In this document: positions 3 to 59,361 of the stretch, piece by piece | Layout of the letters: each line of letters begins with the position of its first letter | How positions within the stretch are numbered: position 1 is the first letter of the stretch | Assembly (NCBI GenBank): GCA_964430735.1 | Contig: CAYSFB010000005.1 | Location: 46,390 to 110,389, forward strand | Direction of reading: 5' to 3' | DNA from: an uncultured Planctomycetia bacterium | GTDB lineage: Bacteria > Omnitrophota > Gorgyraeia > 2-02-FULL-51-18 > JAGOUK01 | DNA length: 64,000 nucleotides | Position numbers and translations under genes: made by a program | The notes under the pieces: generated by a model | Told to the model about the DNA's origin: nothing | What the model saw: the letters and a program-made list of their open reading frames with translations, nothing else | The model's database searches: none

Positions 3-3000
3 TTCCGTAACAAATGGTCGCGGTGGGTGAACGACGAAACCAAGGGCGCGCTGGATGGCCAGCGCGAGCGCTTCGCCCGGGCGCTGATCGAGGATCTCGA
101 CGCGGTTGAAGACGGCCGCCAAACCCGTTTGATCCGGGTGACGCGTGCCGGCGGCCTCGTGTTCATCGACGCCGCCGCGGCGCGGAAGGAGTATCCCGAC
201 GTCTACAAGAACCTCCAGCAGATCGCACAGAAGTCGCGGATTCCCAATTACCGGGAATCGGATCCCCAGTCCCGCGCCCGGCTCCTGAAGAGCCTTCGCC
301 GTGCCTTCGAGTTCGAGCTGGTGGAAGGGGAGGCCCGCCGTAACAATTTCCGCCACGACTTCAATTACAGCCAGGAGCGCAACCCGACGCCCGAGGAATT
401 CTCCGCCTATGTCAACACCTGGAACGACGCGCTCAAGGTCCACGAGTTGCACGGCCATGAAGTGGATCGTTTGCTGGGACACAGCATGCTGTGGCGGAGT
501 AATTACACGGGCGACGAACTCATCACGATCACCGAAATCACGGCCCATCTCATCTCGATGGCGCTGGGACGCAACCCCCACGGCGTCATTCTGCAGACGC
601 ACACCTACACGTCGCGCGGAACATCGGGCGTCGGATACCAGAACATCGGCGTCGAAGTCGCGTTCCGGCTGTTCGCCGCGCTGAGCGCCGCCGACCGGAA
701 CGCGCTGTGCCGGGCGTCAGGTGTCGCCGCCGAGGTCTTTCTTGACAAGTCCAAGCTCGAAAAACTCATGCTGCAGAATCCGGATTGGACTCTGCGGATC
801 GCCAACGGCTTCGCGGCGGTCAAGCCGGCTGCGCTTCAGGCCGCCGCGCTCAAGGCCTACCGCGATTATGTGGACGCCATCGAAGCGGACGCCGCCAAAC
901 ATGCCGGCAAGGAACGAGCGGGCAAGAACGGGGAAAACACCAAGCTGTTCGGCGCCACGCTGGACGCCTTCGCGCTCGAAATGCACGAGGGAAAAGACGG
1001 ACTGGATTCCAAAAATACCGGCAAGCTGCTCACGAAGAGCCTGCTGCGCGATCCGGGCTATCGGCAGGAAGTCGAAAAAACCGCCGCGGAGCTCGAAGCC
1101 AAGTTCCGCGACATCCTGCGGGAGAAACAAGGGGAGCCCGGTTTCAATCACGCCGTCCGCTACCTGATGGCGCGCCTGCGCCAGTTCGGCGATCCCGACG
1201 ATCCGGAGGTTTTCCGCCGCTTCATCAAAATCATGCCCAACGCGCACCGGATCGTGAAGGATGGCTGGACCCAGAGCCGCGTGGTCAAGCATTTTACCGG
1301 CGAACTCCAGACGCTGGACGGCATGCTCCGCGCCGGCCCGGGCACGGACCGTTTCGCCTCGAAGGAATCGGCGGCCAAGGGGCTTCCTGAGGATTTTGAA
1401 GGGATGGTCGATCGCGTCAACCGGAACAAACGAACCGCCGCCGCGCGGATCCGCCCGTTTGCGGAAGCGTCCGGTATCCCTGAGAGCGAGTATTCTCAGG
1501 AGCTGGACGACAATTCCTGCGTATACCTCTCCAAGAGCGGGTTCAGCAAAGTGGATTTTTATGTGGAAGGCAAGCTGCAGAAACGCGGCAGCACGCTGGC
1601 GTATTCCTTCGATTCGTTCCGGATGCTGGTCGTTTCCACGCAGGACAACCCGCTCACCATCAACGACGGGGAATACGAACACGTGCTCAACCACGAAATC
1701 CAGCACTTCAACATCGACATCACCAACGAGCAGATCCGCGAAGGCATCGTGGAAATCCTGTCGCTGCTGAACGCACGCGGGTTCGGCAAAGAACCGCAGA
1801 AGGGGTACCACGCCGTCCTGCAGCACCTTGGTTCATCGACGGATTACAGCTACCAGCGCTACATCACCAACTTGATCGAGGCGCTGCGCCAGTCCGGCAA
1901 CTGGAACCATGAGGTCCTGAGCTACGTCCAGTCCACCGGCGACACGAGCATCCTGAACATTCATTCGCTCGATTCAGCCCTGGCCGAGGTTCGGCTCCGA
2001 GGCGGCTCCGACGCCCAGGTCGTCTTGAAGCGGCGGAACGGAGGCAAGGACGATGCCAAGCCCTGGTCAGAGGTGAAGGCATTCGCGCGGCAGAACCGCA
2101 AGAGCTACGAACAGTTTCTCTATTCCGTCACCCGCCGCCGCAACGGGACGTTCGAGATTACCGAAACCGGCGGCAACATCATTCCTGACCGCGAGACTTC
2201 GCTGGACGAAGATGAAGATCCGCCTCCCGCGGATCCGGCTAAGAAAGACGCCGATGCGAAAGACGGTTCGGACCCCCCTCCCGGCGGCGATCCTGCCGCG
2301 GCCAAGCCTCCCAAACCGGATCCGCTGCAGACGGAAGTGCTTTTCAAGATGCCGTTCATGGTGCCCGGCACCGAAGACGACGAGGACGCAACCGAGCAGG
2401 ATATCGCCGCCTTCGCGCTCAAGCTCGGTTCAGACGTTCGCTGGGACCGGAGCTGGCGCGTCGGCAACGCCCGGCTGCTGCTGCTCGAGCCGGCCAAGGC
2501 GTCCGAGCTCAGCATCGCGCTTGGCGGAGCTTATCCCGCCGGCACCGAATGGGCGGTCGTAATGGATGCGTCTTTGCCGGATGAACAGGCGGTCGCCCTC
2601 GTCCGGTTTGACCCCTATGCCCTCGAAGGCGGATTCCCGGATACGGGCCGGCTCCGGATCGTATCGGTGCTGCATGCAGAACAGGCACATGATACGGCAC
2701 TACCGGACGAAGCGCTGGAGCCGAGCGAAGCGCTCAGAGCATTGTTTTCGCCCGTTGTCGAAGGCGGCCTGGAGAACTATCGAGCCACCCGCGAAGGCCA
2801 GATCGAGACGCTGCTGGATCAGACCTGGGCCGTGATGAATATCCGGGTGGCGAAGTGGATTTTGAACGGCCTCTACACTGCGGAAGAGATCAACCGGAAA
2901 TTTGAGAATGATGCGCAGATGACCATGCTTGCTCTTGCGGAGAAATATGGGTGGGAACCTCCCGAAAAAATCATCTTCCCTGCCAAGAATGCGAAGGTCG

Positions 3001-4493
3001 GTGCCGAAACGAATCCTGTCGCGATCAACCTTTCTGCGGCAACAGGAATGACTCACGGCATTCACCGAGGCAAGATCGGCCCCGGGTCCACTCCGGGCCC
3101 GGTGAAGTACGACGGCCCTATCGGGGCTGTCTTCCAGGCCGCGGACGGATCCTGGAAAATCACCGTCACCGACAATACCGGTTCCGTATTCGTAGGTCCC
3201 ATGACGGACAAAGACAAGCAGATGTCGATTCTCGTTTCCGGAATCGTAAAATCTCAAGCGGACGCGATATCGGTCCGCGGCCTTCTGTCTGACGGTGACC
3301 AGGAGCTTGACCGGCAGGTCAAAGCCAATGGTTTGACCTGGCTTGCGCGGGGATCTTTGTCGAACCACCGTGAATCGCGCGTCACGCTGGACATCACTTC
3401 GGCCAATGTTCCTGACGCAGAACTGGCTGAAAGAGCTCTTCAAGCGCTTCACGGGCTGGACGATGACATGGGTCAGGAATCCCGCACAACTCCCATCAGG
3501 GAAGGGGAATCGTTCTCCGTTGAGCCGTTCCTGGCGCGCGGTACGGGCGTCAAGTCCGTGCGCCGCACATCGTTTTGGAAACCTGCCGGCGGCGGATGGG
3601 AACCAGTGGCCCAGGCGCGCAGGAGTTCCGACACGCGAATGTGGACCGAGCATGTGACCGATGGAGCGCACGCCTGGACCGAAGAACGCACGCTGCGCGC
3701 GATCCGGACCGATGACGGCGTCCTGCGGTACATCGACCAGACAGCATTGGACGTTGAGGTTGTATTTGAAACGTCGTCCGGCGCGCGTCTTGCGGGACAG
3801 GCGGCCGTCGAGACCGCTGAGCGCGGCGCGGAAGACTGGAAAGCGGCGATGTCGCTCTTGATGGTGTTGCGCGAGAACCGAACCGTTTCGCGGCCGATCG
3901 CGATGCCCGCAAGCCTGTTCTACTCGGATGATCGTCTGGATGCTGATTTTATTCGAATGCTCGGAATCTTTAGAACCGCATTGAGCGGGCGGACTCAGGT
4001 TTACGGCAGCGAAGCGGATCTGATGCGGTTGCAATCTGATCTTGCCGCAGCTGCCGGCTCCGGACAGCTTGTCGCCGGGATGATCGATCCCGTGGCACTG
4101 CAGGATGATCTTGCCAAACCGGAACAGATTCGCCGCCATCTGGAGACGAAGGGCCTCGGAGTTGACCCAATCTTCGTGATAGCCGAGAATGATTTAGAAA
4201 AACTGCCCTCAGGAACCGGCTCCGAGCACTGGGTGGTTCTGCCGCAAAAACCGCAGGCCGAAGTTCGCGTGGGAGGAGTTGAAGCGCTGGCCGTCGCCGT
4301 CGCCGCCAACTGGCGGGACGAAATCCTGTCGCTGTTCAGCGGTGGGAGTGGCGAGCTCTACGCGCGCGAGGATCTTAAGACGCTGTTACGGCGACCGACG
4401 CCTTGGGTGCGTTTCCTGAATTTGCCGCAACGGCTGTCTGAACTGATCGGTCAGCTGGTGCAGGGCGCTCGAATGACATCCGCTTCAGCCTAG
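3..4493 (+). CDS. C-terminal portion of a giant multidomain protein. The 5' end lies outside the window: the frame is open from base 3 and the GTG at 27 is only the first start-like codon.
   Basis: The frame is uninterrupted from the window edge to the stop at 4493 and the antisense frames are broken. It contains HEIQH (HExxH) at about 1692-1706 and a P/D/K-rich linker at about 2211-2340. SGARLAG at 3777-3797 is the same pentapeptide that recurs in the downstream giant ORFs. Confidence 0.7.
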   Translation, partial: FRNKWSRWVNDETKGALDGQRERFARALIEDLDAVEDGRQTRLIRVTRAGGLVFIDAAAARKEYPDVYKNLQQIAQKSRIPNYRESDPQSRARLLKSLRRAFEFELVEGEARRNNFRHDFNYSQERNPTPEEFSAYVNTWNDALKVHELHGHEVDRLLGHSMLWRSNYTGDELITITEITAHLISMALGRNPHGVILQTHTYTSRGTSGVGYQNIGVEVAFRLFAALSAADRNALCRASGVAAEVFLDKSKLEKLMLQNPDWTLRIANGFAAVKPAALQAAALKAYRDYVDAIEADAAKHAGKERAGKNGENTKLFGATLDAFALEMHEGKDGLDSKNTGKLLTKSLLRDPGYRQEVEKTAAELEAKFRDILREKQGEPGFNHAVRYLMARLRQFGDPDDPEVFRRFIKIMPNAHRIVKDGWTQSRVVKHFTGELQTLDGMLRAGPGTDRFASKESAAKGLPEDFEGMVDRVNRNKRTAAARIRPFAEASGIPESEYSQELDDNSCVYLSKSGFSKVDFYVEGKLQKRGSTLAYSFDSFRMLVVSTQDNPLTINDGEYEHVLNHEIQHFNIDITNEQIREGIVEILSLLNARGFGKEPQKGYHAVLQHLGSSTDYSYQRYITNLIEALRQSGNWNHEVLSYVQSTGDTSILNIHSLDSALAEVRLRGGSDAQVVLKRRNGGKDDAKPWSEVKAFARQNRKSYEQFLYSVTRRRNGTFEITETGGNIIPDRETSLDEDEDPPPADPAKKDADAKDGSDPPPGGDPAAAKPPKPDPLQTEVLFKMPFMVPGTEDDEDATEQDIAAFALKLGSDVRWDRSWRVGNARLLLLEPAKASELSIALGGAYPAGTEWAVVMDASLPDEQAVALVRFDPYALEGGFPDTGRLRIVSVLHAEQAHDTALPDEALEPSEALRALFSPVVEGGLENYRATREGQIETLLDQTWAVMNIRVAKWILNGLYTAEEINRKFENDAQMTMLALAEKYGWEPPEKIIFPAKNAKVGAETNPVAINLSAATGMTHGIHRGKIGPGSTPGPVKYDGPIGAVFQAADGSWKITVTDNTGSVFVGPMTDKDKQMSILVSGIVKSQADAISVRGLLSDGDQELDRQVKANGLTWLARGSLSNHRESRVTLDITSANVPDAELAERALQALHGLDDDMGQESRTTPIREGESFSVEPFLARGTGVKSVRRTSFWKPAGGGWEPVAQARRSSDTRMWTEHVTDGAHAWTEERTLRAIRTDDGVLRYIDQTALDVEVVFETSSGARLAGQAAVETAERGAEDWKAAMSLLMVLRENRTVSRPIAMPASLFYSDDRLDADFIRMLGIFRTALSGRTQVYGSEADLMRLQSDLAAAAGSGQLVAGMIDPVALQDDLAKPEQIRRHLETKGLGVDPIFVIAENDLEKLPSGTGSEHWVVLPQKPQAEVRVGGVEALAVAVAANWRDEILSLFSGGSGELYAREDLKTLLRRPTPWVRFLNLPQRLSELIGQLVQGARMTSASA

Positions 4494-4515
4494 CGGGAAT
4501 CCATCTGAGGTTATC

Positions 4516-4544
4516 GTTGAACGCTTAAAATGCTGGCATAAACT
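4516..4544 (+). promoter_or_regulatory. Candidate sigma70-type promoter for the TPR lipoprotein operon (-35 TTGAAC, 17-nt spacer, -10 TAAACT).
   Basis: TTGAAC at 4516-4521 and TAAACT at 4539-4544 sit in the 84-nt gap between the giant ORF stop and the next start. Confidence 0.3.
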
Positions 4545-4577
4545 TACTTGCGGCCAGAGAGGCGAGACAAAGTGCGT

Positions 4578-5360
4578 ATGAACAGATTAAAAAAATTTGA
4601 AATAAATCATCTAGAGCAGTGCTGGCTGATGGTGGCGCTGATCTTGATGGGGTGGCTTCTTGCTTGTTCCGCGATCGCCGCAGAAAGCCAACCGCCCGCA
4701 ACCGCAGCCGAAAAGCAATCCCCGCCGCAGGAGGCTTCCCAAAAAACCTCTGAAAAGGCATCCGAACCCCGTCAATCCATCCAAGAACAGATACAAGCCA
4801 TGCATTCCCGTCTCCACCGGCTCGTTCTGGAGCAGAAATACGTCGAGGCGATCCAGGTCGGCCGCAAATTGGTCCGGATCAAGGACCGGCTTCCGTACGC
4901 TCACAATGACATCGGCCACTCCTATTACATGCTCGGCAATTTTCCTGCGGCGCTGGAGCATTTTAGAAAGGCCGCGATTTACGAATCAACCAAGCTCGAG
5001 TTCAAGACCAATGTCGGCATGGCGCTCGAGGCACTCGGCCGTAAAGACGAAGCGGAAAAAACCTACCGCGAGGCCGCGGAAGCCGGCCATCTTCTGGCGC
5101 GGGTGCGTCTGGGCCGGCTCAAGTACGCAGCGGGCGATTTGCAGGCTGCAGAAAAAGAACTCAGTCTGGTTTTGAAGCAGCAGCCCAAGCACCCCGGCGC
5201 GCTGCAGCAAATGTCCCGAATCCGGTTTTCGCAAAAAGATCGGACCGAGGCGGCCCGGTATGCCCGTGAAGCGATCGATGCCGGATACAGGGGCTTCAGC
5301 CGTAACTATCTCGTAATGATCGGCCTGGCTGATCCTCCCAAGCTTCCGTCTGCCAAGTGA
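4578..5360 (+). CDS. TPR-repeat lipoprotein. An alternative upstream TTG start at 4548 is given by the ORF track.
   Basis: Translation from the ATG at 4578 gives MNRLKKFEINHLEQCWLMVALILMGWLLAC, a signal peptide with the lipobox LLAC. It is followed by a Q/P/S-rich linker and TPR-like helical repeats (YAHNDIGHSYYMLGNFPAALEHFRKA; NVGMALEALGRKDEAEKTYREAAEAG). The stop overlaps the next start as ATGA. Confidence 0.55.
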   Translation: MNRLKKFEINHLEQCWLMVALILMGWLLACSAIAAESQPPATAAEKQSPPQEASQKTSEKASEPRQSIQEQIQAMHSRLHRLVLEQKYVEAIQVGRKLVRIKDRLPYAHNDIGHSYYMLGNFPAALEHFRKAAIYESTKLEFKTNVGMALEALGRKDEAEKTYREAAEAGHLLARVRLGRLKYAAGDLQAAEKELSLVLKQQPKHPGALQQMSRIRFSQKDRTEAARYAREAIDAGYRGFSRNYLVMIGLADPPKLPSAK

Positions 5361-7291
5361 TGATCCCGGCACTGGGATCGGATCTGCGCTCCAGAGCCTC
5401 GAATCCGGTTTGCTGGCTCCTCCTGGCGGCGATCGTCTTGCTCGGGACCTGGCTGCGCCTGCTGCCCGTCCTGTCGGTCCCCGAATCGGACTACCTGGGC
5501 GACGCGGAATTCAATTACCGGATGACGCGTGAGGTCGTCCAAAGCGGCCGCCTGCCGGAAGTGGACCGTTTGTCCACCCATCCCGTCGGCAAGCACGTTT
5601 CCCGGGAGCTCCCGGTGTTCCATTACCATCTTCAGGCGGCCTTCCATCACGCGGCCGCGCTCGCCGGCCGGGACGATCTCAAGCAAAACACCTTCCTCTA
5701 CAACGCGCTTCTGGGCGCCCTCATTGCCATCCCGGTCTACATCCTGACGCTCGCGTTGGTCGGGTCGCGCCAAGCCGCGCTCATCGCAGCGCTCATCGCC
5801 GTGATCCTGCCCATGGGAATGATCCGATCCTTCAGCGTCTACAACCGTCAGGAGGTTACGGGCGTGACGGCCGGACTGCTCGCCCTGGCCCTGTGGATCC
5901 GCGCCTGCTGCGAACCCGGGGATCGCCGGTCCCTGGCGTTTTCCGCGGCTGCCGGCGCCGCCTTCATCGCGGCGTTTGCGAGCTGGCGGATGAACCTGCT
6001 GCTTTTCCACGTGATATCGGTCATTTTTTTGCTCATGGCAACCGGGAACTTTGCGCACAAGCGCCAGATCGCCCGCGGAATGACGATCCTGTGCGCCGCC
6101 TATCTGCTCTCCTGCATCGGTCTTGAGTATCTGCGTCATTACCGCGTCATCTTGTCGGCGGAGTCGGCGTTGACGTTCGTGACCCTCGTCGCTTCCGCCT
6201 TTGTCTGGAAAAATTCCAAACTCACGATGACGTCCGCTCAAAAATGGATCTATCGGGCTGCGGTGGTCCTCGTTCTTGCGAGCCTGACATGGCTTTTTAT
6301 GCGGTTCGGCATGCAGACGCCCGGATCGGGCGTCGCGAGTCTCTTGGCCATTGCTTTGAGGCAGATGGGATATCCCGTCAGTCTCACGGACGAGCAGAAT
6401 CTTTATTTCACCAGCGTCGAGCTGGCGCCCATGCCGCTTGATTCGCTGTTCGGCCCGATGCGGCTCGGCTGGATGTCGCTTTGGCCGCTCGTGTTTTGGG
6501 TTCGGCCTTTCCGCATCCAGTCCGAACGACCGCAGTCGGGGTATGCGTGGGCGGTATCCGGACTTGTGACGGTGGTCGCGCTGGCGGGCACGCTGTTGGT
6601 CGCCTCCCGGAATCAGGTTTTTTTTAGCCCCATGTTCGCAGTGTGGGCAGGGATCGGGGGCTGGCAGACCGCGCAGGAACTGCGGCGGCAGATCTCCGGC
6701 AAATGGCTGACGGCCGCCGCCGTGGCGGTGATGACGGTCTTTATCGGCGTCGCCGGATATCACGCATATGACATTATGAAAAACTTGAATCCCAATCAGC
6801 TGAAACGAGACGATTCCTTCAACGATATCCTCAAATGGATCCGAAGCGAGACCGAGCCGAATGCCGTCATCTGGGCTCATTGGGCGCACGGCTATCCGAT
6901 CCAGACGCGCTCAGAGCGGGCGACCATCCTGGACGGCCTCTTTGAAGTTCCGGAAATGCGCCGCCGGGTCCTGGAGGAAAAAAGCGTGGTTCGGAGCGGG
7001 GACCCCCAAAAAATCTTCGATTTTTGCAAAAAGTACGGAGTCAGCTATGTCCTGGTCAGCATGAACCATCTCCCGTCCTATCGAGACCGCCGCATGGACC
7101 GTGACGACGTGCTGGACCGGATTGTGCTTCAGCACCCGGAAAAACTCCCGTTTTTTGAGACACTTTTCCGTAATGAGCGGTTCGTCTTTTATAAGTTTAA
7201 TCCGATCCGGGAGGCCGAGAGGGCCCAATCACAGGGGGGCAGGACTCGAAGGTCCACTTTTGAGTATTTACAGACTGCCGGTCCGCAATAA
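5357..7291 (+). CDS. Polytopic GT-C family membrane glycosyltransferase, STT3/AglB-like (oligosaccharyltransferase-like).
   Basis: The N-terminal half has about 11-13 hydrophobic helices. The first lumenal loop carries D-A-E-F-N-Y-R, which resembles the STT3/AglB DPYFNYR motif. The C-terminal soluble part carries IWAHWAHGYPIQ, a degenerate counterpart of the WWDYGYQI box. The start overlaps the upstream stop (ATGA at 5357-5360). Confidence 0.5.
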   Translation: MMIPALGSDLRSRASNPVCWLLLAAIVLLGTWLRLLPVLSVPESDYLGDAEFNYRMTREVVQSGRLPEVDRLSTHPVGKHVSRELPVFHYHLQAAFHHAAALAGRDDLKQNTFLYNALLGALIAIPVYILTLALVGSRQAALIAALIAVILPMGMIRSFSVYNRQEVTGVTAGLLALALWIRACCEPGDRRSLAFSAAAGAAFIAAFASWRMNLLLFHVISVIFLLMATGNFAHKRQIARGMTILCAAYLLSCIGLEYLRHYRVILSAESALTFVTLVASAFVWKNSKLTMTSAQKWIYRAAVVLVLASLTWLFMRFGMQTPGSGVASLLAIALRQMGYPVSLTDEQNLYFTSVELAPMPLDSLFGPMRLGWMSLWPLVFWVRPFRIQSERPQSGYAWAVSGLVTVVALAGTLLVASRNQVFFSPMFAVWAGIGGWQTAQELRRQISGKWLTAAAVAVMTVFIGVAGYHAYDIMKNLNPNQLKRDDSFNDILKWIRSETEPNAVIWAHWAHGYPIQTRSERATILDGLFEVPEMRRRVLEEKSVVRSGDPQKIFDFCKKYGVSYVLVSMNHLPSYRDRRMDRDDVLDRIVLQHPEKLPFFETLFRNERFVFYKFNPIREAERAQSQGGRTRRSTFEYLQTAGPQ

Positions 7292-7560
7292 AGGCCATGT
7301 AAGTAATTCAAAATATAGATATTGAGGCATTCGACCTATAATTTAGTAGACAAAAAATATAAATATCTCTTCCTTGAATTAAACAGCACGGACCTGTATA
7401 CTTCTCATAGTTACGGGGGTAACTGGGGGGATCCATGTCATCTTTTCAATTTGTCGTTCTATCATTTTTGTCTCGGTGATTTGTTTTTTTCCGATCATAT
7501 TTAAAAAATTTGATTAAGTAAAAGTACAAAGATAAAAAAGCGATTCAAAGAAAGATAAGA
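7292..7560. promoter_or_regulatory. AT-rich intergenic island upstream of the 10.3k-aa gene, a likely promoter/leader region.
   Basis: About 270 nt of strongly A/T-rich sequence sits in otherwise ~64% GC DNA, with poly-A/T tracts and several -10-like hexamers (TATAAT at 7337-7342, TATACT at 7397-7402). Confidence 0.5.
7375..7402 (+). promoter_or_regulatory. Near-consensus sigma70-like promoter (-35 TTGAAT, 16-nt spacer, -10 TATACT) about 160 nt upstream of the giant gene start.
   Basis: TTGAAT at 7375-7380 and TATACT at 7397-7402. Confidence 0.35.
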
Positions 7561-38618: not shown

Positions 38619-38661
38619 TTCTAAGAACCTTGAATGCTCGGCTGTTGTCGGGCAGGCTTTG

Positions 38662-38690: not shown

Positions 38691-38718
38691 TAATGAATAA
38701 GCAGGAGACTAATTCGCA

Positions 38719-47136: not shown

Positions 47137-47148
47137 AAAGAACCCGGC

Positions 47149-53100: not shown

Positions 53101-56100
53101 CTTTCGAGCGCATGGAAGACGCTGGCGGACCTTCAGAACTCGCTTGCGGACCGGCAGGCTAGTCTCATGCCCGTTCATCATCCGATTAAATACGCCAGTT
53201 CGAACCTCCGCGTTTCGATCCTCGCAATCATCAGGCATTATTCCGAGCTCGAGCCGGCCGTCGAAGACTTTGTTTATTACCGCGATGTCATGCGGCTGAT
53301 CCGGAAGGGGTCCGGGAATGTCGTCCGGTCCATGAACCTCGCCGAGCGCGCGGGGGATTGGCCCTGGAGCCGGTTCGAATCGGACGAGGAGTTTGAAGCG
53401 TTTTGCGAACAATTCGAAATCCGGTGGGTCACCCTCACAGGCTCTCCCCATCCGTTCGATGCTGTGATTCAGCCGGCGCCGTCCGGCAACGGCATGACCG
53501 ACGCGGTCGATGAATTGTTCTCGATGCAGGGTGAATTCGAGATCGCGATGCGCGAAATGCCGGAATTCAAGGATCAGCCGGTTGCTTCGGATATAGAGTC
53601 CGATCTCCGGCAGATGAGAGAGTGGATCGAGCTCAAGGAGGCCGTCCGGCCCCTTCAGCACCAGCTGAACGCGAAGATGGCCGCCTACTACATCGAGAAG
53701 TCGATGGACTTGATCGATTCCAAGGGTGCCGTCCGCGCTGGAATTTTTAATGTGCTGACGTCGGATCCGCGGTTCGCTGCGGGCGATCGGGACTTCATCC
53801 ATGATGAGCTGCTGTTCGCGCCGGACTCGATCGACGGCAGGAACCTGACGGATTCTGATCTGACGCGCCGTGTTTTGTCCCATCCCGCCCTGGCGTCGGT
53901 AGACCCCCTCCGGGCCAAGGTCGTCTGGCACCTGTTCAAGGCGTGGACTGCCTGGGTTGGCGTCCGCGGTCCCCGGGGAGAGCTGGTCGCGCAGGGCTTC
54001 TGGGACGAGATCGTGGCCCTGGACCGTGTGGATACGATCGCTTCAGTTCCGTGGCTGGCGGTTTACGAAGAACGGATCGCTTGGGCCATCCGGGAGGTGT
54101 CCGGGAACCCCGCCCTGTTTTTGGGGCCTTTGACGGATTCGGAGTACCCATCCGTTGAGGGGCGGGCGGCCGCTGCGATGGATTTGGCGGATCTTCTGAC
54201 GGCGGAGCCGACGTCCGAATCCGAGGGCGAGGGCATGCTCGTGCGCGCGAAGCGGGCGGTCCGGATGCTCCACAGCGCTTTTGGCGCCCGCCTGGCGGCG
54301 GACCGTGTGCGGCCCGGGCAAAGTGAACAGCGTCTGAATCCCGCTCCCAGAGAGTTCCGGATGGCACGCAAGCTTCTCAAGCTCGTCCAAAATTCCGATT
54401 TGGAGGGCATGGATAAATATGTCAAAACCCAGGCGCTCCTGGCGGCGCTTTATGGCGGAGAGGCGATCATCTGGCACAGGAACAAGCAAACAGGGAAATG
54501 GCAGCGCAATATTTTCCGTTTTTCCAACGGACTGTTGTACACGCTTCCGTTTTCGGCCATGGAGACGGTCCGGTCCATGCGTGCCGGTGAAGATGTCCGG
54601 GGCAGCCTCCTGGAGCTTTTAGCGCCCCGCGACCGCGACCGGAACATCTACAACCACTGGAAAGGTTTGGCGGAGCCTGTTCCTGCGGAGGCAGGAGGAT
54701 GGACCGGCAAAGCGACAGAGCAGAATTTGACCGAGTTGATCCTCGAGATTTCGGAGGAGGCGGCAAAATACGGGATCCGTCCGGAGCATTTTGCGACATT
54801 GGCGGTTGATCCGGACTTTCAGAATCCGTTTTTGCACACCTTTATCGGGATTCCCGCTGAATCGCATGTGTTCGAGCAGGGCGCGAGCCGCCTTGAGATG
54901 GCTGCAACAGTCATGCGCCTGTCGCCCGAAGATCGAAGCAAGTTCGTGCGTCTCGAGAACCATTTTGAGCCCGAAATCCTGATTGAGGTGGCTGACGTTC
55001 CGAAGAATGTGACGGTGATCCGCGACCGTCATCAGGTGGGCGATCCCAAGCCCGGCAAAGGCGGCATCCGGTTTATTTCGGCGGGACAGCTCAGTCGGGA
55101 CCGGGACTTCATGGAGCGCTTCGAGAAGCTCAAAGCCTCCGGGTTTAATCTGGATGAACTGCGGTTTTTCCTGCGCAAATGGGTCCGGGAAGAAGTGCGC
55201 GCGCTCGCGATCGGCATGTCGGTCAAAAATGCCGTTGCGGATCTGCCGTTTTCCGGCGCCAAGGGCACGGTTCTGTTTGCGGATGTCGAGCAGTCGCCCA
55301 AGAAGGGTCCCGTGATCCAGGACCTCTTCGCCGGCATGAACGCCTCGGAAGACGGCGGAGTGAGCCCTGCTCAGCGCTACAAGGCCAGCGTGTTGCGCCG
55401 ATTTGTAGACGCCATGTATGACGCGGGGGTTTTGGGTCCTGATGACGATGTGCCGGCTCCCGACCTGGGATCGACTTCCGCCGACATGGATATCATGACC
55501 GATGCGCTTCTGCGCAGATACCTGGGCTTGGGTATCCGCCAGCCTTATGCAGAGACCGTCCATGTTTTGGCCGGGTTGCGTTCCTCCGGCCACTATCCCG
55601 CCGAGCTGCTCGACCGCATCGAAGAAATGGTCCGGAGTCACCGCTCGAATATGGACGCGCTGATGGTTCGTCCGGTTCTGCTCGAAATTGTTGCCGGATA
55701 CCTTAAAGAGGCGATGGCGGCAGGAGTCAAAATCAAGCCGGGAACTCCATTCGGGAACCTGGCGCGCCTGCCGGCGACTTTTACCGCCAAGTCCGAAGCC
55801 AACCTGGGTTCCGGTTATCGCAGCCGTGCCACGGGCGAGGGTGTTCAGGAGATCGCCAAGACGTTTTATATCGAAGATCATCCGGAGAAGTCCGATTCCG
55901 CATCCCCGATGGACGGTGTGACCGTCAAGATCGAAGGAGCCGGAGCAGTCGGGCTTGAGGCCGCGATCGCGGCGGTCCGGGATGGCGCCAAAGTCATCTC
56001 CATGAAGGAAGCCACCGGCACGGCCTTCAAGTCCCGGGGTTTTACCATAGAAGATTTGGAAAAAATGCGGCGAGTACTCCAGCGCAATCAGGACGGCTCT

Positions 56101-59100
56101 GCGGTCCATCCCGAAGGTTTTGCCCTGCTCGACGCCAAGACGGCAGCCGCATCGGAGTTTACGATCGACGGCGCATTCGTCCTTGCGGGGAGCGACGCGC
56201 AGGACGCGTTTTTGACCGAGCCGGCCGTTTTCTTCTACGCCTGCGCGATGGAAAATTCCATCAACGGAACCAATGTCCATGCCCTGAACGCCGACTATAT
56301 TGTCGAGGGGGCGAATGGCGCCATTACGAATGAGGCTTATTGGCACTTGATTGAGCAGGGGCGCACGGTATTGCCGGATTCCCTGGCGAATGCCGGCGGC
56401 GTGACCGGCTCCACGTGGGAGTGGCAGGCCAATCGTGACTTGGTGAGGCATACTGCCGCCAGCGAACGGAAGATGACGCTCGGCCAACTTACTGCCGCGG
56501 CGCTTCGGCTTCGGAAGATCCAAAACCGCTGGATCAACTCGGCCGGAGATCCGCTGGATCTGCGCACGGCGACCATGATCGTGCTGTTGGAGCGCGGATT
56601 CAAAGGAGGTCCGGCCGCAGCCCGTCTCGCGTCCCAGTCCATCCGGACATTCGAACGCGAGGTCGCGTTGGTTAGGGACGGGGTCAAGGCGAATTTGGTG
56701 ATGCAGTTCGCGGTTCCCGACCGCAAAGACCTCGTTCGGCGCGCATCGTTGTCCATCGAGGTCGTACAGGATCCTGGCAGCACCCCGGCGCCGGCGATGC
56801 TTCAGCTGCCGATAGCGGAGCGGCCGGCGATTCTTTTGAGCCGCATCGAAGACTATATTCACGAGTTGTCGCAGTCCCGGGAGCTCTTGGATGATATCGG
56901 CGGCCTGCAGCGTGAAGTGGCCCTCAAGTTCAGCCGGATCGTCACGGCGGATACGATGCGGGATGAGATGCAATTGCTGAATTCCGCCGAGGCAAAAGCG
57001 GCCCGGGCAACGGATGATGAGGATATCAGGTCGGTGATCCGGATCCTTCAAAGCGCCAAGCGCCGGTTCAACGACCCTGAGGACGAAAAATTCCACGGCA
57101 ATTATACGGGGTACATCAACGAAGTCCGCAGGGCCCTGGATCTTCTGGAGCCGATGGGATTCAATCCGCACGGGCCCTTCGGGTCGGATCTGGGAACAGC
57201 CGACGACCCGCTTGAGACGCTCGGCCGCGCCGTTGTGCAGTTTTTGCAAATTGCCGAAGGCGGGGATGCATCCGATGGAGCGCGCCTGGCGATTTGGGAT
57301 CGTTGGTTCGGCGGCGAACGCAATTCCGGCAACCGTCCTTCCAGTCAGAGCGTGATCGAACACAATCTGCAGGCGATCGAGCGTCTCGTCCAGACTGCGG
57401 TCATACCCTCGTTTGACCGGCAGATGAAGCGGCTTTATTGGCGCGGCGAGACTCATCTGATCCCTCTTTCCGCCCCGGCCTTTGAAGGGATCGTCGACGG
57501 TCCGGAAGCCTCCTTCCAGATCCACGCGGTTCATGTCGATGCGGACGGGCGGATTTTGCCTTCCGGTGAAGTCGAAGGATCCGTGCGCACCATCCTCGAT
57601 TTGACCGATCACATGCGTTTACGGGCGCGGTCCAAGAGTCCAAACTTCCTCGCGACGATCCATCAATTCAACCGGTCCGGCTCCAAACCCCTCTACGAGC
57701 GCCTGCGGGTGATGCGTCAGGATTTCCTGCAATCCCGGCGGGGCCGGGAGGTCCGTGATTTGGAAATGACGCGGGGTTCCGGGTGGCTCTTGGGCGAACG
57801 CGCGGCGGTGATCCTCGAAAAGCTGCAGGATGGAGCCGTCCGTATCGGAGTTTATACGGACTCCCGGATGCCCGTTCGGCCGGCCGGATCTGTCGACGAA
57901 GACTCGGATGCGCCGGCCGTCGAATGGGATGCGCACATCCCATTTAACCAAGTCCGCAAAACGGATTTGCGCTCGTACGAATTTGTATGGAAGCGGGCTA
58001 ACGGTTCGGTTCAGTCGGATCCCGAGGCGATCTACCTGAACGACGGGGATGTGCGGTTATGGATCAAGTCCGTCGATCCCGGTCTTGGCGGAATCACTCT
58101 TTCCTATCAGGCGCCGGTGCGATTACGCCAGCGCCGCATTTCTCAGACCGACATCCCGTCCAAGTCCGGCTCGCGGCTGGCCAAGGCCGGGCAATACCGT
58201 GCCCGATATCTGTTTGAGCCGGCGGCTGTCAAACAAGTCCAATCGCCGGTCACAGAACAGAGTCTTTCCCCGACCCGTCCATCCGGCCGATATGAGCGCC
58301 ATCGGTTGCGATCAGCACAGATTCCGAGCGCCCTTCGGACGGTGATCGAAAACGGAGATTTGGAGCGCTTTGGCTCCGGGGTGTTCGCCGCGCAGCCGGC
58401 GGCGTTTGAATCGGATACCGACTTTGCGATGTTGTTGGACGAAAAGGATCCGGTGATCATCCGGGCGTCCTATGATTCTTCGGCGGACATCCTGAGTCTA
58501 TGGGCCTTGACCTCCGATGAAAACCCGATCCTGCTGCACCAAATCCGGAATCCGCGCAGGGCTTTTGTGGAGGATGCCCGCCGATCTGCCGCCGTCAGTC
58601 TGTCGATGTCGGATGTTCAAATGACCATCGAGGCGTTGCATGCGAGCCTTGACGCCCTGATGCCCGTCAGCCGGTCCGAAGATGCGGCCGCGCCCGCCAA
58701 GGTTCGCAACCGCATTCTAGAATACACGCTCGATTCGTGGTTCGACCCCGAGCATCCGGAAGACTTCGATGTCGTGGTGCCGCTGCTGGTGCAGGAAGCG
58801 TTGAGCGCCCGCCGGGCGCTCGAGAATCAGGTCGCCTTCACTCTCAAGGGCCGGGAAGATCTGGCAGTCCGTGTCCTGGCCGCGGCGTCCGCCGCAGGGG
58901 CCGGGGATCTCTTTTATTCCTCCGAGGAGGATCTCAAGCGCCGTCTGCCCGGATTCGATTCGGATGATGTCGTCACGGTCCGGGTCCAAAGTTCGGATGA
59001 TCCCAGGCCGGCCGCTCCTGTAAACGGGGAAGCGGCGGATGTGCGCACCATTGCGGTCCAGCCCTTGCGTCGGTCCCAAGACAACCGGATCGGTGTGCCG

Positions 59101-59361
59101 GCCATCAAGCTGGTGACGCGATTGGCGATTTTTCTCGCGGATGCCGAGAAGACGCCGGAATTCAGAGACCGGCTGCGGCGCATTATCCGCCTTTCGACCG
59201 GTCAGGATGCCTCTGACGCCGAAATCGACGCGCTCATCGACGGCACGGCTTCCGCCGAGCTTCTCAAAAAACTCTCGGTCCGCCCGATTCTGACGGTCCC
59301 GATTTCCGCCTACCTTCGCGTCATGCAAATGACTGCCCGCATGGCCGAAGCCTCCGCCTGA
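47149..59361 (+). CDS. Giant (4,070 aa) signal-anchored multidomain protein: conserved N-terminal module, GHMP-kinase-like domain, metallophosphoesterase, and large NAD-glutamate-dehydrogenase-like region.
   Basis: An uninterrupted 12.2-kb frame starts 12 nt after the upstream stop. The N-terminus MSVLRTRTPIRIRAIAALAAAAFLLQDVAFAMP is a signal anchor. The homologous N-terminal module runs to about 48700. Confidence 0.85.
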   Translation: MSVLRTRTPIRIRAIAALAAAAFLLQDVAFAMPELAARAGVPHVPASAAMIEDRFDAGHSGGKTVFLIQDAHTNASGQRHIARTLEALHNQTGFTHVFLEAGSGDDSIGFLRPLAGSADRRNVAEPYLNKGLLQGAEYFELVTDRPVKLWGVEDPALYAQALAAYRTVALGRSVHEARIGRLDTAVEVLKHKIYNPALLELDRILLSDVRESKPFTELLAELDPFLKRASLGWGEFPELAAVHRALAMERKIDFDLVRLEEAEAIHRLPEADRAAIEAVRSSAGRIAGSNLAVQASHAALLKEALAAAPGPARSVPAELRKYFEYIEATQAIRTERAVREQERLTQALISRLTRTREEAGLVRAASALEAFRGLGALELTPDRYKSESANPYFADVARFEGFLNGQWMRLGTGYEKVVFLDPAFEDWIAEAKRFYDLTLARDRQMIREALLRMDEAGERKAVLVAGGYHAPNLKRLLRESGVSYVSILPQITHPTDKARYERLLLAQTPGRPAGSARAMSLKPSREANPALLEQIARDLASRPGASPEALRAVLSELSGGARLAASSQSVRTGVEAFADSIVDKLRRDPLFDFADFSSEAQTLFGSRTDRIPALEILAQRINRTLMEDRSLMPFEKARLYQFLADLSLNDREQSESVFGTDIFYGAYKRMMGTRRYLIERNRQLLAAFRSVMLPVLEKVKRPSGPVYSGNKVTAEVSARFDALHHGVGKDLFVYASVPDEKSVLNFTVDPDAGPAFRIVVRPSERRGVSVANFRYQHPDQKDAAPDVTRLEADDADGIRELKSDPQFNHVMAALSAAGLTSHRAGEEQVLSSIKSIYGMSPWEGIEIEIHSRLPVSSALGGGTGMTSALIAALLEYTGRGKAVSKAELALLGSYAEMLLAVDDPSSPMGGWQDALGALLTYLNWITIGSDRPFTELHEQAIFEGEVQIRREQQLMSSLLARSVPILLPSAEGTGSQDVLEELVSLHLRGSRRSREAAAAGRVRMEQAWDLISRYRSGDLTLESATDGLIRLMTEEAEAFGSLVLGVRHEGFDRLLSELTSARDLKNPDGTPLVSGGKIGGAGSRGVALVFLAAGNDRELSVRRRRVLDAAERAGMSSFPLRAGDGLRLKSAPVRRTQGARLTSAVSLRGLAPEVELEVLKHHRDELKKERFAPGTGNFTRVYLFSDIHGSIGKMDDFILKALKDAFPEAFGSIARLDPSISLQEQLAEPVRQVGGWNVIREKVAFLNGGDLMDRQDINKGESGLAVYERTIQLQELGLQEFTTGNHDHLVIMPLMGLHLPTYEGYRFYLDMTEAGKAAQRALEHEIYRDPARPDSKLKLRPVEDVVRERNRGFASDRDRTEFWSQKFSDYYTERIDPASPLVREWKQIGSEVLGDPASGSAPLMSKDQIKGLSGLQKVFWNKFTGKNMEDVDIYTGIRTIKVGDQEVCSTGLMSAMWWRELRTNFQQQLDKPLDAKDAIRDLSIRASWEKAIRYMDRILEGLEADLRKRRSEGQWWVRAIEALYNQNYYTAEQAAWDWVVHLGWGPALFEEINRLIRAGKIPGPEIDRSNFLLNSKIQEMSRRMQEMFALYSRNRYMTFLHATLPMDRATDSAPGDSAPILPGQFRFRYDGVTYVGAGHEASGSPSVWEGMDRLERAVREADPVHMSDAATAFNAIYDWYSDFKTRAKPRDVLELVNDDIAFTNFFNLNGIYGFLGTGHNPLPTGFAKYVREMLRRFAGVLTQAFGPRFRDYWLQLDAGVSLKFGNQGLMIAIHPADIAGGLRIFGYTKPDAKELTENPAIYYEKTYKNYKEQKKSDAETPEPNPAFTTEPVGHEDFLLGHLGIVEDRIRVLESRLRSQVEADGPGGARLAENLPEYKRTISRQLTGAMGQLSKLAQELENVKAEIARMRGYEPDPDGPEAPEEPGMNRAIIDYFLGGDLASRTDRLQDFADRIEYVREQISAASMPLLLDHPSREDLLGALADLSSAWKTLADLQNSLADRQASLMPVHHPIKYASSNLRVSILAIIRHYSELEPAVEDFVYYRDVMRLIRKGSGNVVRSMNLAERAGDWPWSRFESDEEFEAFCEQFEIRWVTLTGSPHPFDAVIQPAPSGNGMTDAVDELFSMQGEFEIAMREMPEFKDQPVASDIESDLRQMREWIELKEAVRPLQHQLNAKMAAYYIEKSMDLIDSKGAVRAGIFNVLTSDPRFAAGDRDFIHDELLFAPDSIDGRNLTDSDLTRRVLSHPALASVDPLRAKVVWHLFKAWTAWVGVRGPRGELVAQGFWDEIVALDRVDTIASVPWLAVYEERIAWAIREVSGNPALFLGPLTDSEYPSVEGRAAAAMDLADLLTAEPTSESEGEGMLVRAKRAVRMLHSAFGARLAADRVRPGQSEQRLNPAPREFRMARKLLKLVQNSDLEGMDKYVKTQALLAALYGGEAIIWHRNKQTGKWQRNIFRFSNGLLYTLPFSAMETVRSMRAGEDVRGSLLELLAPRDRDRNIYNHWKGLAEPVPAEAGGWTGKATEQNLTELILEISEEAAKYGIRPEHFATLAVDPDFQNPFLHTFIGIPAESHVFEQGASRLEMAATVMRLSPEDRSKFVRLENHFEPEILIEVADVPKNVTVIRDRHQVGDPKPGKGGIRFISAGQLSRDRDFMERFEKLKASGFNLDELRFFLRKWVREEVRALAIGMSVKNAVADLPFSGAKGTVLFADVEQSPKKGPVIQDLFAGMNASEDGGVSPAQRYKASVLRRFVDAMYDAGVLGPDDDVPAPDLGSTSADMDIMTDALLRRYLGLGIRQPYAETVHVLAGLRSSGHYPAELLDRIEEMVRSHRSNMDALMVRPVLLEIVAGYLKEAMAAGVKIKPGTPFGNLARLPATFTAKSEANLGSGYRSRATGEGVQEIAKTFYIEDHPEKSDSASPMDGVTVKIEGAGAVGLEAAIAAVRDGAKVISMKEATGTAFKSRGFTIEDLEKMRRVLQRNQDGSAVHPEGFALLDAKTAAASEFTIDGAFVLAGSDAQDAFLTEPAVFFYACAMENSINGTNVHALNADYIVEGANGAITNEAYWHLIEQGRTVLPDSLANAGGVTGSTWEWQANRDLVRHTAASERKMTLGQLTAAALRLRKIQNRWINSAGDPLDLRTATMIVLLERGFKGGPAAARLASQSIRTFEREVALVRDGVKANLVMQFAVPDRKDLVRRASLSIEVVQDPGSTPAPAMLQLPIAERPAILLSRIEDYIHELSQSRELLDDIGGLQREVALKFSRIVTADTMRDEMQLLNSAEAKAARATDDEDIRSVIRILQSAKRRFNDPEDEKFHGNYTGYINEVRRALDLLEPMGFNPHGPFGSDLGTADDPLETLGRAVVQFLQIAEGGDASDGARLAIWDRWFGGERNSGNRPSSQSVIEHNLQAIERLVQTAVIPSFDRQMKRLYWRGETHLIPLSAPAFEGIVDGPEASFQIHAVHVDADGRILPSGEVEGSVRTILDLTDHMRLRARSKSPNFLATIHQFNRSGSKPLYERLRVMRQDFLQSRRGREVRDLEMTRGSGWLLGERAAVILEKLQDGAVRIGVYTDSRMPVRPAGSVDEDSDAPAVEWDAHIPFNQVRKTDLRSYEFVWKRANGSVQSDPEAIYLNDGDVRLWIKSVDPGLGGITLSYQAPVRLRQRRISQTDIPSKSGSRLAKAGQYRARYLFEPAAVKQVQSPVTEQSLSPTRPSGRYERHRLRSAQIPSALRTVIENGDLERFGSGVFAAQPAAFESDTDFAMLLDEKDPVIIRASYDSSADILSLWALTSDENPILLHQIRNPRRAFVEDARRSAAVSLSMSDVQMTIEALHASLDALMPVSRSEDAAAPAKVRNRILEYTLDSWFDPEHPEDFDVVVPLLVQEALSARRALENQVAFTLKGREDLAVRVLAAASAAGAGDLFYSSEEDLKRRLPGFDSDDVVTVRVQSSDDPRPAAPVNGEAADVRTIAVQPLRRSQDNRIGVPAIKLVTRLAIFLADAEKTPEFRDRLRRIIRLSTGQDASDAEIDALIDGTASAELLKKLSVRPILTVPISAYLRVMQMTARMAEASA
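49380..50540 (+). other. GHMP-family (sugar/small-molecule) kinase-like domain.
   Basis: IEIEIHSRLPVSSALGGGTGMTSALIAALL is comparable to GHMP motif II, P-x-[GSA]-x-G-L-G-S-S-A-A. The C-terminal PLVSGGKIGGAGSRGVALVFL is comparable to GHMP motif III, G-A-K-x-x-G-A-G-G-G-G. Confidence 0.45.
50680..51500 (+). other. Calcineurin-like metallophosphoesterase domain.
   Basis: RVYLFSDIHGS (D-x-H), NGGDLMDRQ (G-D-x-x-D-R) and TTGNHDHLV (G-N-H-[DE]) appear in the canonical order. Confidence 0.5.
53000..59361 (+). other. Large NAD-specific glutamate-dehydrogenase-like (Bac_GDH / L_180-class) region. The catalytic core lies at about 55000-56460.
   Basis: KPGKGGIRFISAGQLSRDRDFMERFE...MSVKNAVADLPFSGAKGTVLF is comparable to large-GDH [42 protein letters not shown]. 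The Rossmann motif IEGAGAVGLEAAIAA is present. IVEGANGAITNEAYWHL...LANAGGVTGSTWEWQAN is comparable to GDH EGAN.PTT.EA......PD...NAGGV..SYFEW.QN. Confidence 0.55.

Follow-up and report, generated by a model that had tools for sequence, protein, structure and literature searches.

A Tiki-like N-terminal module and a recurrent G-A-R-[L/M]-A motif in giant multi-enzyme proteins of Omnitrophota: possible self-processing polyproteins

Giant multi-enzyme proteins of Omnitrophota have been described twice, so as a class, and as a general phenomenon, they are already known. West-Roberts et al. 2023 (bioRxiv 10.1101/2023.11.21.568195) reported the 'Archaeovorins', proteins of >30,000 amino acids (aa) that contain glycosyltransferases, methyltransferases, NUDIX domains and peptidases, together with numerous transmembrane helices and a divergent SecA-DEAD domain, and whose N-terminal regions are generally without identifiable domains except for C39 or S8 peptidases; whether these proteins persist as one chain or are cleaved was left open, and the lack of cleavage points blocked domain-wise structure prediction. 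Nielsen & Lui 2026 (bioRxiv 10.64898/2026.06.07.730766) described 'multi-enzyme metabolic clusters' of >=10,000 aa, in which the commonest Pfam domain is starch synthase (PF08323). Both papers leave the function of the Omnitrophota giants open (10.1101/2023.11.21.568195; 10.64898/2026.06.07.730766). Here we analyze a stretch of 64,000 nucleotides (nt) of contig CAYSFB010000005.1 (positions 46,390 to 110,389; hereinafter, the window), in which three complete giant genes, G1, G2 and G3, encode a homologous N-terminal module, the head, followed by enzymatic payloads that differ from gene to gene and are punctuated by a short motif, [S/A]-G-A-R-[L/M]-A. Conceivably, the products of these genes are exported polyproteins that are processed at the motif by their own heads.

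The genes of the window resemble the previously described giants in that they belong to the same phylum, are very long open reading frames (ORFs) with a signal peptide and a carbohydrate importer nearby, and encode many enzyme families none of which dominates (GT5/PF08323, GT1, NUDIX, guanylate kinase, a phosphorylase-like enzyme, GHMP kinase and glutamate dehydrogenase). Unlike those giants, only G1 passes 10,000 aa, whereas G2, G3 and the truncated upstream gene, ORF A (2,805, 4,070 and 4,878 aa, respectively), fall below this length. A Pfam scan of G1-G3 detected no SecA or SecA-DEAD, C39, S8, dockerin, adhesin repeat, RTX or glycoside hydrolase domain, transmembrane helices are few or absent in these proteins, and the 64-kb window is devoid of type II secretion genes. 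Tiki and TraB are absent from both texts on Omnitrophota giant proteins, although no search of these texts was aimed at the GAR[L/M]A motif as such. In the searchable literature, we did not find a description of the head family, of its family-specific signal peptide or of the G-A-R-[L/M]-A motif at module boundaries, and queries for the motif, for 'polyprotein' together with Omnitrophota and for DUF5682 produced nothing relevant.

Giant genes with a shared N-terminal module

The first-pass annotation of the window reported three complete giant ORFs of 10,307, 2,805 and 4,070 aa and the 3' end of a fourth one, and these are indeed present, head to tail, on the + strand. The three complete ORFs span 51,555 nt, in agreement with the claimed 52 of 64 kb or so, and together with the fragment of ORF A, 56,046 of the 64,000 nt are occupied; the GC content, which had been given as about 64%, is 59.6%. 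The lineage, left open at that stage despite a mention of Omnitrophota, is Omnitrophota, as indicated by the head homologues and by the clustering of an ABC permease. The relatives of the head in the homologue search were named Candidatus Omnitrophota, the permease clusters at >=90% identity with MBP9733913.1 (Candidatus Omnitrophota), and almost all of the 195 head relatives in a scan of one genome per species come from Omnitrophota metagenome-assembled genomes or from third-party assemblies labelled 'uncultured Planctomycetia', many of the genomes having five or six copies of the head. The window is identical to contigs from two independently assembled sequencing runs (0 mismatches over 28,418 nt and 17,291 nt), in which gene callers also yield the 10,307-aa G1 and extend ORF A to 4,878 aa, with its N-terminus beyond the edge of the window; the same proteins are encoded on an NCBI contig of 184,999 bp. 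Identical independent assemblies and identical gene calls imply that the long frames are not an accident of assembly, and the continuity of the ORFs is thus supported. The genes and their N-terminal features are as follows (position, strand, feature).

3..4493, +, ORF A, last 1,496 codons of the upstream giant gene; stop-free frame running off the left edge
7561..38484, +, G1, giant gene, 10,307 aa; also called in two independent assemblies
7561..7653, +, predicted signal peptide of G1, aa 1-31, ending in FFFQDVVMA and followed by TG; family consensus F..[QE][QDE]..[FYW]-A-[AN]-P
7561..9120, +, head of G1, aa 1-520, Tiki-like; candidate catalytic D84, H86, E114, E167, R452, H480
38719..47136, +, G2, giant gene, 2,805 aa (P0010 in the family set)
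38719..38790, +, predicted signal peptide of G2, aa 1-24, ending in FMGQELAVA and followed by AP
38719..40242, +, head of G2, aa 1-508, Tiki-like; candidate catalytic D71, H73, E101, E154, R441, H469
47149..59361, +, G3, giant gene, 4,070 aa (P0031 in the family set)
47149..47241, +, predicted signal peptide of G3, aa 1-31, ending in FLLQDVAFA and followed by MP
47149..48669, +, head of G3, aa 1-507, Tiki-like; candidate catalytic D70, H72, E100, E153, R441, H469

A shared N-terminal module of about 500 aa had been proposed from the letters, and BLASTP alignments bear this out, with E=2e-38 and 26% identity for G1/G2, E=1e-72 and 32% for G2/G3, and E=3e-21 and 27% for G1/G3. One of the conserved boxes from which the module had been recognized, IQDAH(T/S)N.SGQ, needs correction because in G1 it reads IQDAHSSIGAQ, so that neither N nor SGQ is retained there. 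The claim that the payloads differ completely holds for the most part; the only similarity outside the heads is a guanylate-kinase-like segment common to G1, which has two copies, and G2.

The suggestion that these are paralogous export heads fused to different payloads, for which a metagenomic search had been recommended, is supported by a profile search. Run against 1.84 billion cluster representatives, the head profile retrieved 9,738 representatives at E<=1e-3 and 6,471 at E<=1e-30, G2 and G3 themselves being among the representatives. Among the best 150 profile matches, with lengths from ~440 to 7,482 aa, all but three begin at or near the N-terminus, and in the genome loci, there is one head per ORF, with the QDAHTN box located 18-152 aa (mostly 50-116 aa) from the ORF start throughout; tandem pairs of head genes are found elsewhere as well. 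Altogether, head-bearing proteins vary in length between ~500 and >10,000 aa, and most of the family is therefore missed by surveys with a length cut-off. The payloads are mostly unrelated to each other, with a median of 19% of the residues alignable to any other payload. Among 20 sampled payloads, GH116, phosphoglycerate kinase, carbamoyltransferase, UDP-glucose dehydrogenase, CsrA, phosphoglucomutase, hexokinase, protein kinase, NUDIX, methyltransferases, M48 peptidase and ROK were detected, each in one protein only. The CsrA domain was identified in one payload with E=1.5e-29 (alignment A2, 20 head-bearing relatives); CsrA is a small RNA-binding global regulator, and its presence along with phosphoglycerate kinase and hexokinase places cytoplasmic housekeeping functions behind a putative export signal.

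The N-termini, which had been interpreted as plain signal anchors, look instead like cleavable signal peptides, with a basic n-region (net charge of about +2), an A-x-A and then a Pro at +2, a pattern which suggests that the N-terminal segment is removed. Across the heads of G1-G3 and of the family set P0001-P0152, the signal peptides conform to a family-wide consensus, F..[Q/E]-[Q/D/E]..[F/Y/W]-A-[A/N]-P-[D/E], in which F is conserved in 89%, [Q/E] in 77%, [Q/D/E] in 90%, A in 95%, [A/N] in 80% and P in 73%; the polar/acidic pair sits within the hydrophobic core. This is an unusual level of conservation for a signal peptide, given how divergent the family is, and it points to targeting or recognition by a dedicated mechanism, as opposed to an ordinary Sec signal. 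In this respect, it is comparable to the family-specific signal peptides YSIRK and ESPR. A scan for hydrophobic segments found only the N-terminal one in G2 and G3 and ~7 additional, weak internal ones in G1.

The faint resemblance of the module to the Tiki/TraB/GumN superfamily that had been pointed out is now supported by sub-threshold matches to ChaN and DUF5682 and by invariant catalytic-type residues. In a Pfam scan of 71 heads, the sub-threshold matches were led by ChaN (PF04187), found in 11 (best E 0.0016), followed by DUF5682, a putative member of the clan, in 5 (best E 3.6e-6), with TraB in 1. Two AlphaFold models of the G2 head (mean predicted local distance difference test scores (pLDDT) of 83.6 and 79.0) show an N-terminal helix that corresponds to the signal peptide, a disordered stretch and then an alpha/beta core with strands at 50-56, 65-71, 97-100, 149-152, 460-466 and 483-489, split by a ~300-residue helical insertion (156-455). 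These models support the assignment of the core of the head (~480 aa) to the Tiki/TraB/ChaN/EreA hydrolase fold, with a central parallel sheet and surrounding helices. A Foldseek comparison of the head to the PDB yielded only helical-bundle noise, owing to the ~300-aa insertion, and phmmer and hmmsearch runs against PDB sequences gave only spurious coiled-coil matches.

The residues D71, H73, E101, E154, R441, G466, G467 and H469 (G2 numbering) are invariant in 149-153 heads of 25-45% identity, and the same catalytic-type residues are present in G1 and G3, so that the set reads D-x-H, then E at a distance of 28 residues, R, and GG(Y/F)H. In RRSP, a protease of the Tiki family, the 2His/2Glu + Arg site, essential by mutagenesis, consists of E3900-x-H3902, E3930, R4001 and H4030, with R4001 located 29 aa before the second His (PMC6254334). 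The spacing between His and Glu is 28 residues in both the head and RRSP, the head having Asp in place of the first Glu of RRSP; R441, present in all of 150 heads, precedes H469 by 28 aa, and its equivalence to R4001 is one of order and spacing only. At the sequence level, the head thus reproduces the RRSP site, which supports the Tiki assignment, and looks like an active hydrolase. Members of this superfamily are often extracytoplasmic, and some, such as Tiki and RRSP, are sequence-specific endopeptidases (PMC6254334). The likeness to Tiki, TraB, PrgY, GumN, ChaN and EreA extends to the predicted alpha/beta core with its parallel sheet and to the predicted location of D/E-x-H, E, R and G-x-x-H at equivalent strand ends; the head differs in having Asp first, in the ~300-aa helical insertion and in that no Pfam model matches it at threshold. 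It also invariably occupies the N-terminus of very long proteins with many enzymes, and in the literature on the superfamily that we examined, no such architecture was encountered.

A short motif between the modules

The consensus of the longer alignments showed GARLA shortly after the head, and we therefore performed an unbiased k-mer analysis. In the four giants of the window, GARLA is the most enriched 5-mer (12 observed vs 0.12 expected) and ARLA the most enriched 4-mer (19 vs 1.6 expected). When the pattern [GAS][AS]R[LM][AS] is counted, G1 contains 9 sites, G2 and G3 6 each, for a total of 21, compared to a mean total of 1.1 and a maximum of 6 in shuffled sequences. In 132 payloads of relatives (344,651 aa), there are 686 sites vs 10.7 expected, which is ~2 per 1,000 aa, distributed over 111 of the 132 proteins and including 346 copies of GARLA (1.6 expected) and 85 of GARMA (0.28 expected).

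The enrichment is specific with respect to the order and the identity of the residues: there are 754 forward matches vs 24 reversed and 12-34 for permuted versions, and 12 when Lys is substituted for Arg. A compositional or low-complexity artefact was accordingly rejected, the reversed and permuted motifs being ~30 times rarer and Lys being no substitute for Arg. The synonymous codons vary among the sites and no more than 0-2 matches occur in the other five reading frames, which indicates selection at the protein level; on the same grounds, a DNA-level signal for recombination or uptake was rejected. The flanks are unconserved except for S or A at -1, with no flanking residue above 24%, so that the motif is not part of a longer repeated domain either. 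Almost certainly, the motif is a selected functional element.

There are no sites in 153 heads, and the first site follows the GG(Y/F)H histidine by 75-150 aa in 87 of 119 proteins; the spacing between sites has a median of 256 aa (interquartile range 136-526). Conserved segments show a 2.8-fold depletion of sites in their cores (64 observed vs 181.5 expected), whereas within 10 aa of alignment ends, sites are 4-fold enriched (20% vs 4.6% of random positions), and their +-10-aa flanks have a linker-like composition. In G1-G3, each detectable domain falls into its own inter-site interval, as can be seen from the sites and domains of the four giants.

3780..3794, +, GARLA, ORF A; sole site in the 3,044 aa of ORF A read
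9121..31827, +, G1 region without detectable domain, aa 521-8089; four motif sites
9877..9891, +, G1 site aa 773, ASRLA (relaxed pattern)
9895..9909, +, G1 site aa 779, GARLA
18427..18441, +, G1 site aa 3623, GARLA
28252..28266, +, G1 site aa 6898, GARLA
31828..31842, +, G1 site aa 8090, GARLA, 36 aa before NUDIX
31936..32346, +, G1 NUDIX hydrolase domain, aa 8126-8262; Pfam NUDIX E=2.5e-15
32554..33288, +, G1 guanylate-kinase-like segment 1, aa 8332-8576; BLASTP to G2 aa 1349-1576, E=6e-23
33949..33963, +, G1 site aa 8797, GARLA
34624..35904, +, G1 glycogen/starch-synthase-like GT-B enzyme, GT5 aa 9022-9270 and GT1 aa 9321-9448; Pfam Glyco_transf_5 E=6e-31, Glycos_transf_1 E=1.6e-9
36145..36159, +, G1 site aa 9529, AARLA
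36454..36897, +, G1 guanylate kinase domain, aa 9632-9779; Pfam Guanylate_kin E=3.5e-21
37450..37464, +, G1 site aa 9964, GARLA
38014..38028, +, G1 site aa 10152, SARLA
40405..40419, +, G2 first site aa 563, AARLA, 94 aa past the GGYH histidine
41638..41652, +, G2 site aa 974, AARLA
41842..41856, +, G2 site aa 1042, AARLA; homology to P0131 starts exactly at the site
42463..42477, +, G2 site aa 1249, GARLA
42763..43446, +, G2 guanylate-kinase-like segment, aa 1349-1576; BLASTP to G1, NCBIfam guanyl_kin E=7e-7
43720..43734, +, G2 site aa 1668, GSRLA (relaxed pattern)
43915..45288, +, G2 alpha-glucan-phosphorylase-like GT-B enzyme, aa 1733-2190; NCBIfam more_P_ylases E=6e-29, Pfam Phosphorylase and Glyco_transf_5, PDB sequence matches
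46009..46023, +, G2 site aa 2431, GSRLA, directly before the C-terminal module
46024..47133, +, C-terminal module of G2, aa 2436-2805; homology with the C-terminal end of P0055, BLASTP E=2e-23
48826..48840, +, G3 first site aa 560, GARLA, 91 aa past the GGYH histidine
49633..49911, +, G3 GHMP (mevalonate-kinase-like) kinase domain, aa 829-921; Pfam GHMP_kinases_N E=5e-7, NCBIfam
52747..52761, +, G3 site aa 1867, GARLA
54283..54297, +, G3 site aa 2379, GARLA, upstream side of the glutamate dehydrogenase module
54349..56601, +, G3 glutamate dehydrogenase module, aa 2401-3151; Pfam ELFV_dehydrog E=1e-29, PDB 1v9l E=6e-19
56617..56631, +, G3 site aa 3157, AARLA, coinciding with the natural C-terminus of glutamate dehydrogenase
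57277..57291, +, G3 site aa 3377, GARLA
58168..58182, +, G3 site aa 3674, GSRLA (relaxed pattern)

The C-terminal part of G1 illustrates this arrangement, with the order being site 8090, NUDIX and the kinase-like segment, site 8797, GT5-GT1, site 9529, guanylate kinase and site 9964. The glutamate dehydrogenase module of ~750 aa is bounded by sites both in G3 (2379, 3157) and in P0101 (4741, 5465), at differing places along the two chains, and site 3157 of G3 coincides with the point where free-standing glutamate dehydrogenases end; the word-indexed homologue search with this region gave one relative only. Similarly, the match between the G2 module (1042 to 1249) and P0131 (2532 to 2765) extends from one site to the next in both proteins. 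The last 370 aa of G2 possibly represent a C-terminal module common to G2 and P0055.

Outside head-bearing proteins, the motif is nearly absent, with a density per 1,000 aa of 1.7 in head-bearing ORFs vs 0.12 in neighbouring ORFs of <1,000 aa. Where sites do occur in head-less ORFs, these are mostly ORFs truncated at the 5' end by the edge of the locus, and five large head-less ORFs that start inside the loci contain zero sites. In four loci (L001 9938-15113, L037 8459-14082, L043 3684-12499 and L055 7629-17290), a large head-less ORF with sites comes directly after a short 'complete' head ORF (527-975 aa), the two ORFs overlapping in three of the four; these pairs represent either frameshift errors of the assemblies or real split head/payload gene pairs.

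The variant of the motif is common to the paralogues of one genome and differs between genomes, with one genome containing 56 sites with L to 3 with M. In genome CAYJVC (loci L014, L028, L038, L039, L064 and L077), GARAA is enriched, with 21 occurrences vs 0.04 expected, in addition to 15 of GARMA, so the fourth position accepts Ala in that lineage. The JBLINS loci (L005, L009, L049, L052 and L066) have intact catalytic residues and no or almost no GAR[L/M]A, showing only a weak enrichment of xRM[A/S]. The 4,207-aa protein P0113, also with intact catalytic residues, has no GAR[L/M]A sites and carries FHA domains.

The region of G1 between aa 521 and 8089 (~7,600 residues) showed no Pfam match, no PDB sequence match and no internal repeat; it includes a few weakly hydrophobic segments and the sites at aa 773/779, 3623 and 6898, which would delimit modules of ~2,800-3,300 aa, unlike the densely sited C-terminal 2,200 aa. 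ORF A has no Pfam or NCBIfam match and no similarity to G1-G3, and the word-indexed homologue search gave no relatives.

Around the giants, the window contains the following genes.

4629..5360, +, TPR-repeat protein, 243 aa, one N-terminal hydrophobic segment; Pfam TPR_2 E=2e-15
5360..7291, +, membrane glycosyltransferase, GT-C type (Dpy19/STT3-like), 10 hydrophobic segments; Pfam Dpy19 E=1e-8, NCBIfam archaeo_STT3 E=1e-9
59426..62515, +, sugar ABC importer: solute-binding protein 59426-60781, permeases 60778-61665 and 61670-62515; Pfam SBP_bac_1 E=1.5e-40, BPD_transp_1
62490-63431, -, 313-aa ORF, no Pfam match, in partial overlap with the end of the second permease gene

The TPR and GT-C genes sit between ORF A and G1 (4629-7291), with overlapping start and stop. 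Homologues of these two genes do not recur beside head genes in 78 other loci, and no conserved partner gene or dedicated secretion partner was found beside head genes, the neighbours being ordinary housekeeping genes. That the motif might be a sequon glycosylated by the neighbouring GT-C enzyme was considered and rejected since the motif contains no N, S/T or W and the GT-C gene is not recurrent next to head genes.

The polyprotein reading and its alternatives

We propose that the products of these genes are Sec-exported polyproteins that are processed at the motif by their own Tiki-type head, a reading to which we assign a probability of roughly 45%. Under this scenario, the precursor would be exported via Sec by means of the family-specific N-terminal signal peptide, and the head would act as a sequence-specific endopeptidase, like Tiki and RRSP, with the motif as its target. 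The first cut would occur in cis just behind the head, where the first copy of the motif is found ~90-100 residues past the catalytic His, followed by cuts along the chain or in trans on paralogues. The payload is a gene-specific chain of modules, many of them enzymes of cytoplasmic type, with the motif between the modules; such cutting would release individual domain-sized enzymes. That the motif is a cleavage site, whichever protease is involved, we consider to have about an even chance. The extension of this scenario to the entire family, under which thousands of Omnitrophota genes would encode Sec-exported precursors that cut themselves at G-A-R-[L/M]-A and release metabolic and regulatory enzymes outside the cell, is in our estimate possible and rather doubtful; if these proteins are a large class of polyproteins, the enzymes would most plausibly go into or onto the host or prey of episymbionts.

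Several observations weigh against this scenario. Cleavage at the motif is something that we infer from sequence patterns, and exported ATP- or NAD(P)-dependent enzymes would have no obvious use unless they reached another cell or host. No Pfam model of the Tiki clan reaches the curated threshold on the heads, the matches to ChaN and TraB being far too weak, and an hhalign comparison of the head profile to Escherichia coli YbaP (TraB family) was not significant (probability 0.35), with only the R...GxxH segment aligned. The fold itself includes non-proteases, ChaN being a haem-binding protein and the Ere enzymes esterases (PMC6254334). In an AlphaFold model of the head with the linker, the first site was not clearly docked into the head; it lies at the C-terminal end of a helix (pLDDT ~75) and is followed by disorder. 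The first 8,000 aa of G1 hold only four sites, and P0055 and P0087 have a site at most ~12 residues from the recorded end, which is odd for processing unless the records are truncated. Finally, 16-21 head-bearing proteins, for example P0113, lack a site even though their catalytic residues are intact, and in one genome that encodes six heads, canonical sites are nearly absent, with only a weak xRM[A/S] enrichment, so that cutting the motif cannot be the only role of the head.

Some of the same observations would fit a motif that is a processing site cut by a separate protease encoded in the genome, with the head performing a different function after export, perhaps retention in the envelope, binding of haem or another ligand as in ChaN, or hydrolysis of an ester or peptide substrate of the host. 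The existence of head-bearing proteins without any site and of non-protease members of the Tiki fold (PMC6254334), as well as the absence of a clear docking of the first site, are in line with this possibility, and the use of the same motif variant by the paralogues of one genome is what a single trans-acting factor would predict. Such a protease would nevertheless have to operate without a conserved partner gene near the head genes, and the near confinement of the motif to head-bearing ORFs, the fixed distance of the first site behind a site-free head and the invariance of a full set of catalytic-type residues all speak against it, so that we regard a separate protease as fairly unlikely.

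Under another scenario, the giant proteins remain intact and function as multi-enzyme scaffolds that the N-terminal segment tethers to the membrane, and the motif is a docking, chaperone/translocation or modification signal in the linkers. Any linear recognition motif could consist of five residues with unconserved flanks, the published work treats such proteins as membrane-associated giants and leaves cleavage open, and the sites near the recorded ends of P0055 and P0087 suit docking better than cleavage. What makes this interpretation improbable, in our opinion, is that sites of the motif coincide with the borders of modules and, in one case, with the natural end of a known enzyme, that a protease-type fold with invariant catalytic residues heads every protein, and that G2 and G3 have no hydrophobic segment beyond a signal peptide whose A-x-A/Pro(+2) pattern suggests removal of the N-terminal segment.

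A role in extracellular attachment to, or degradation of, the cell walls of prey, as proposed for the Archaeovorins, with the head and the motif being incidental, draws on the common phylum, on the same kinds of Pfam domains (glycosyltransferases, NUDIX) and on the sugar ABC importer adjoining G3. We consider it quite unlikely given that none of the glycoside hydrolase, dockerin, adhesin-repeat, SecA-DEAD, C39 and S8 domains was detected in G1-G3, the detectable enzymes are nucleotide-dependent and cytoplasmic in type, the window lacks type II secretion genes, and the statistics of the motif would be left unexplained. Finally, overlaps of some short head ORFs with the next ORF suggest frameshifts in the assemblies of certain other metagenome-assembled genomes. 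For the window, the chance that mis-assembly or pseudogenes lengthened the ORFs, or that the shared N-termini reflect a recent local duplication, is negligible: the sequence is the same in two independent assemblies, chance cannot produce frames of 2,800-10,300 codons without a stop, identity among the heads is just 26-32%, and the family has thousands of members.

The self-processing scenario would have substantial implications. If it is correct, the 'giant genes' are delivery cassettes for effector cocktails (kinases, glycogen enzymes, dehydrogenases, NUDIX, CsrA), the motif supplies the cleavage map that earlier studies called missing, and by releasing the enzymes outside the cell, episymbiotic bacteria would influence the metabolism of their hosts in an unusual manner. 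The question whether giant proteins are cut, and where, is now testable because candidate protease residues and exact candidate sites can be named in three genes. In addition, the motif offers a rule for splitting thousands of unannotated giants into module-sized pieces for structure prediction.

Comparison with known modular and self-processing proteins

The proposed organization is not without parallel. In MARTX toxins, an internal protease cuts the linkers between effectors and thus releases the modules of a very long secreted protein; the cysteine protease domain involved cuts after Leu and before a small residue, which resembles a cut between the Leu and Ala of ...R-L-A. The giants described here are similarly very long chains with several unrelated enzymatic modules, the release of which by cleavage is our proposal. 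No RTX glycine-rich repeats or C80 cysteine protease domain were detected in G1-G3 (Pfam, E<=0.01), and hence these proteins are not members of the MARTX family. Moreover, MARTX toxins use type I secretion by a C-terminal signal, whereas a predicted N-terminal Sec signal is present here, and the candidate protease has a different fold and is located at the N-terminus.

The viral polyproteins and the gingipain polyproteins of Porphyromonas (RgpA/Kgp/HagA) provide the other relevant comparison, in that one ORF encodes a protease together with modules and the short recognition sites co-vary with the lineage; the gingipain precursors are cut after Arg or Lys. The family described here has no sequence or fold relationship with these systems and, unlike them, comprises thousands of paralogues, reaching >10,000 aa in length and carrying metabolic enzymes as their payloads.

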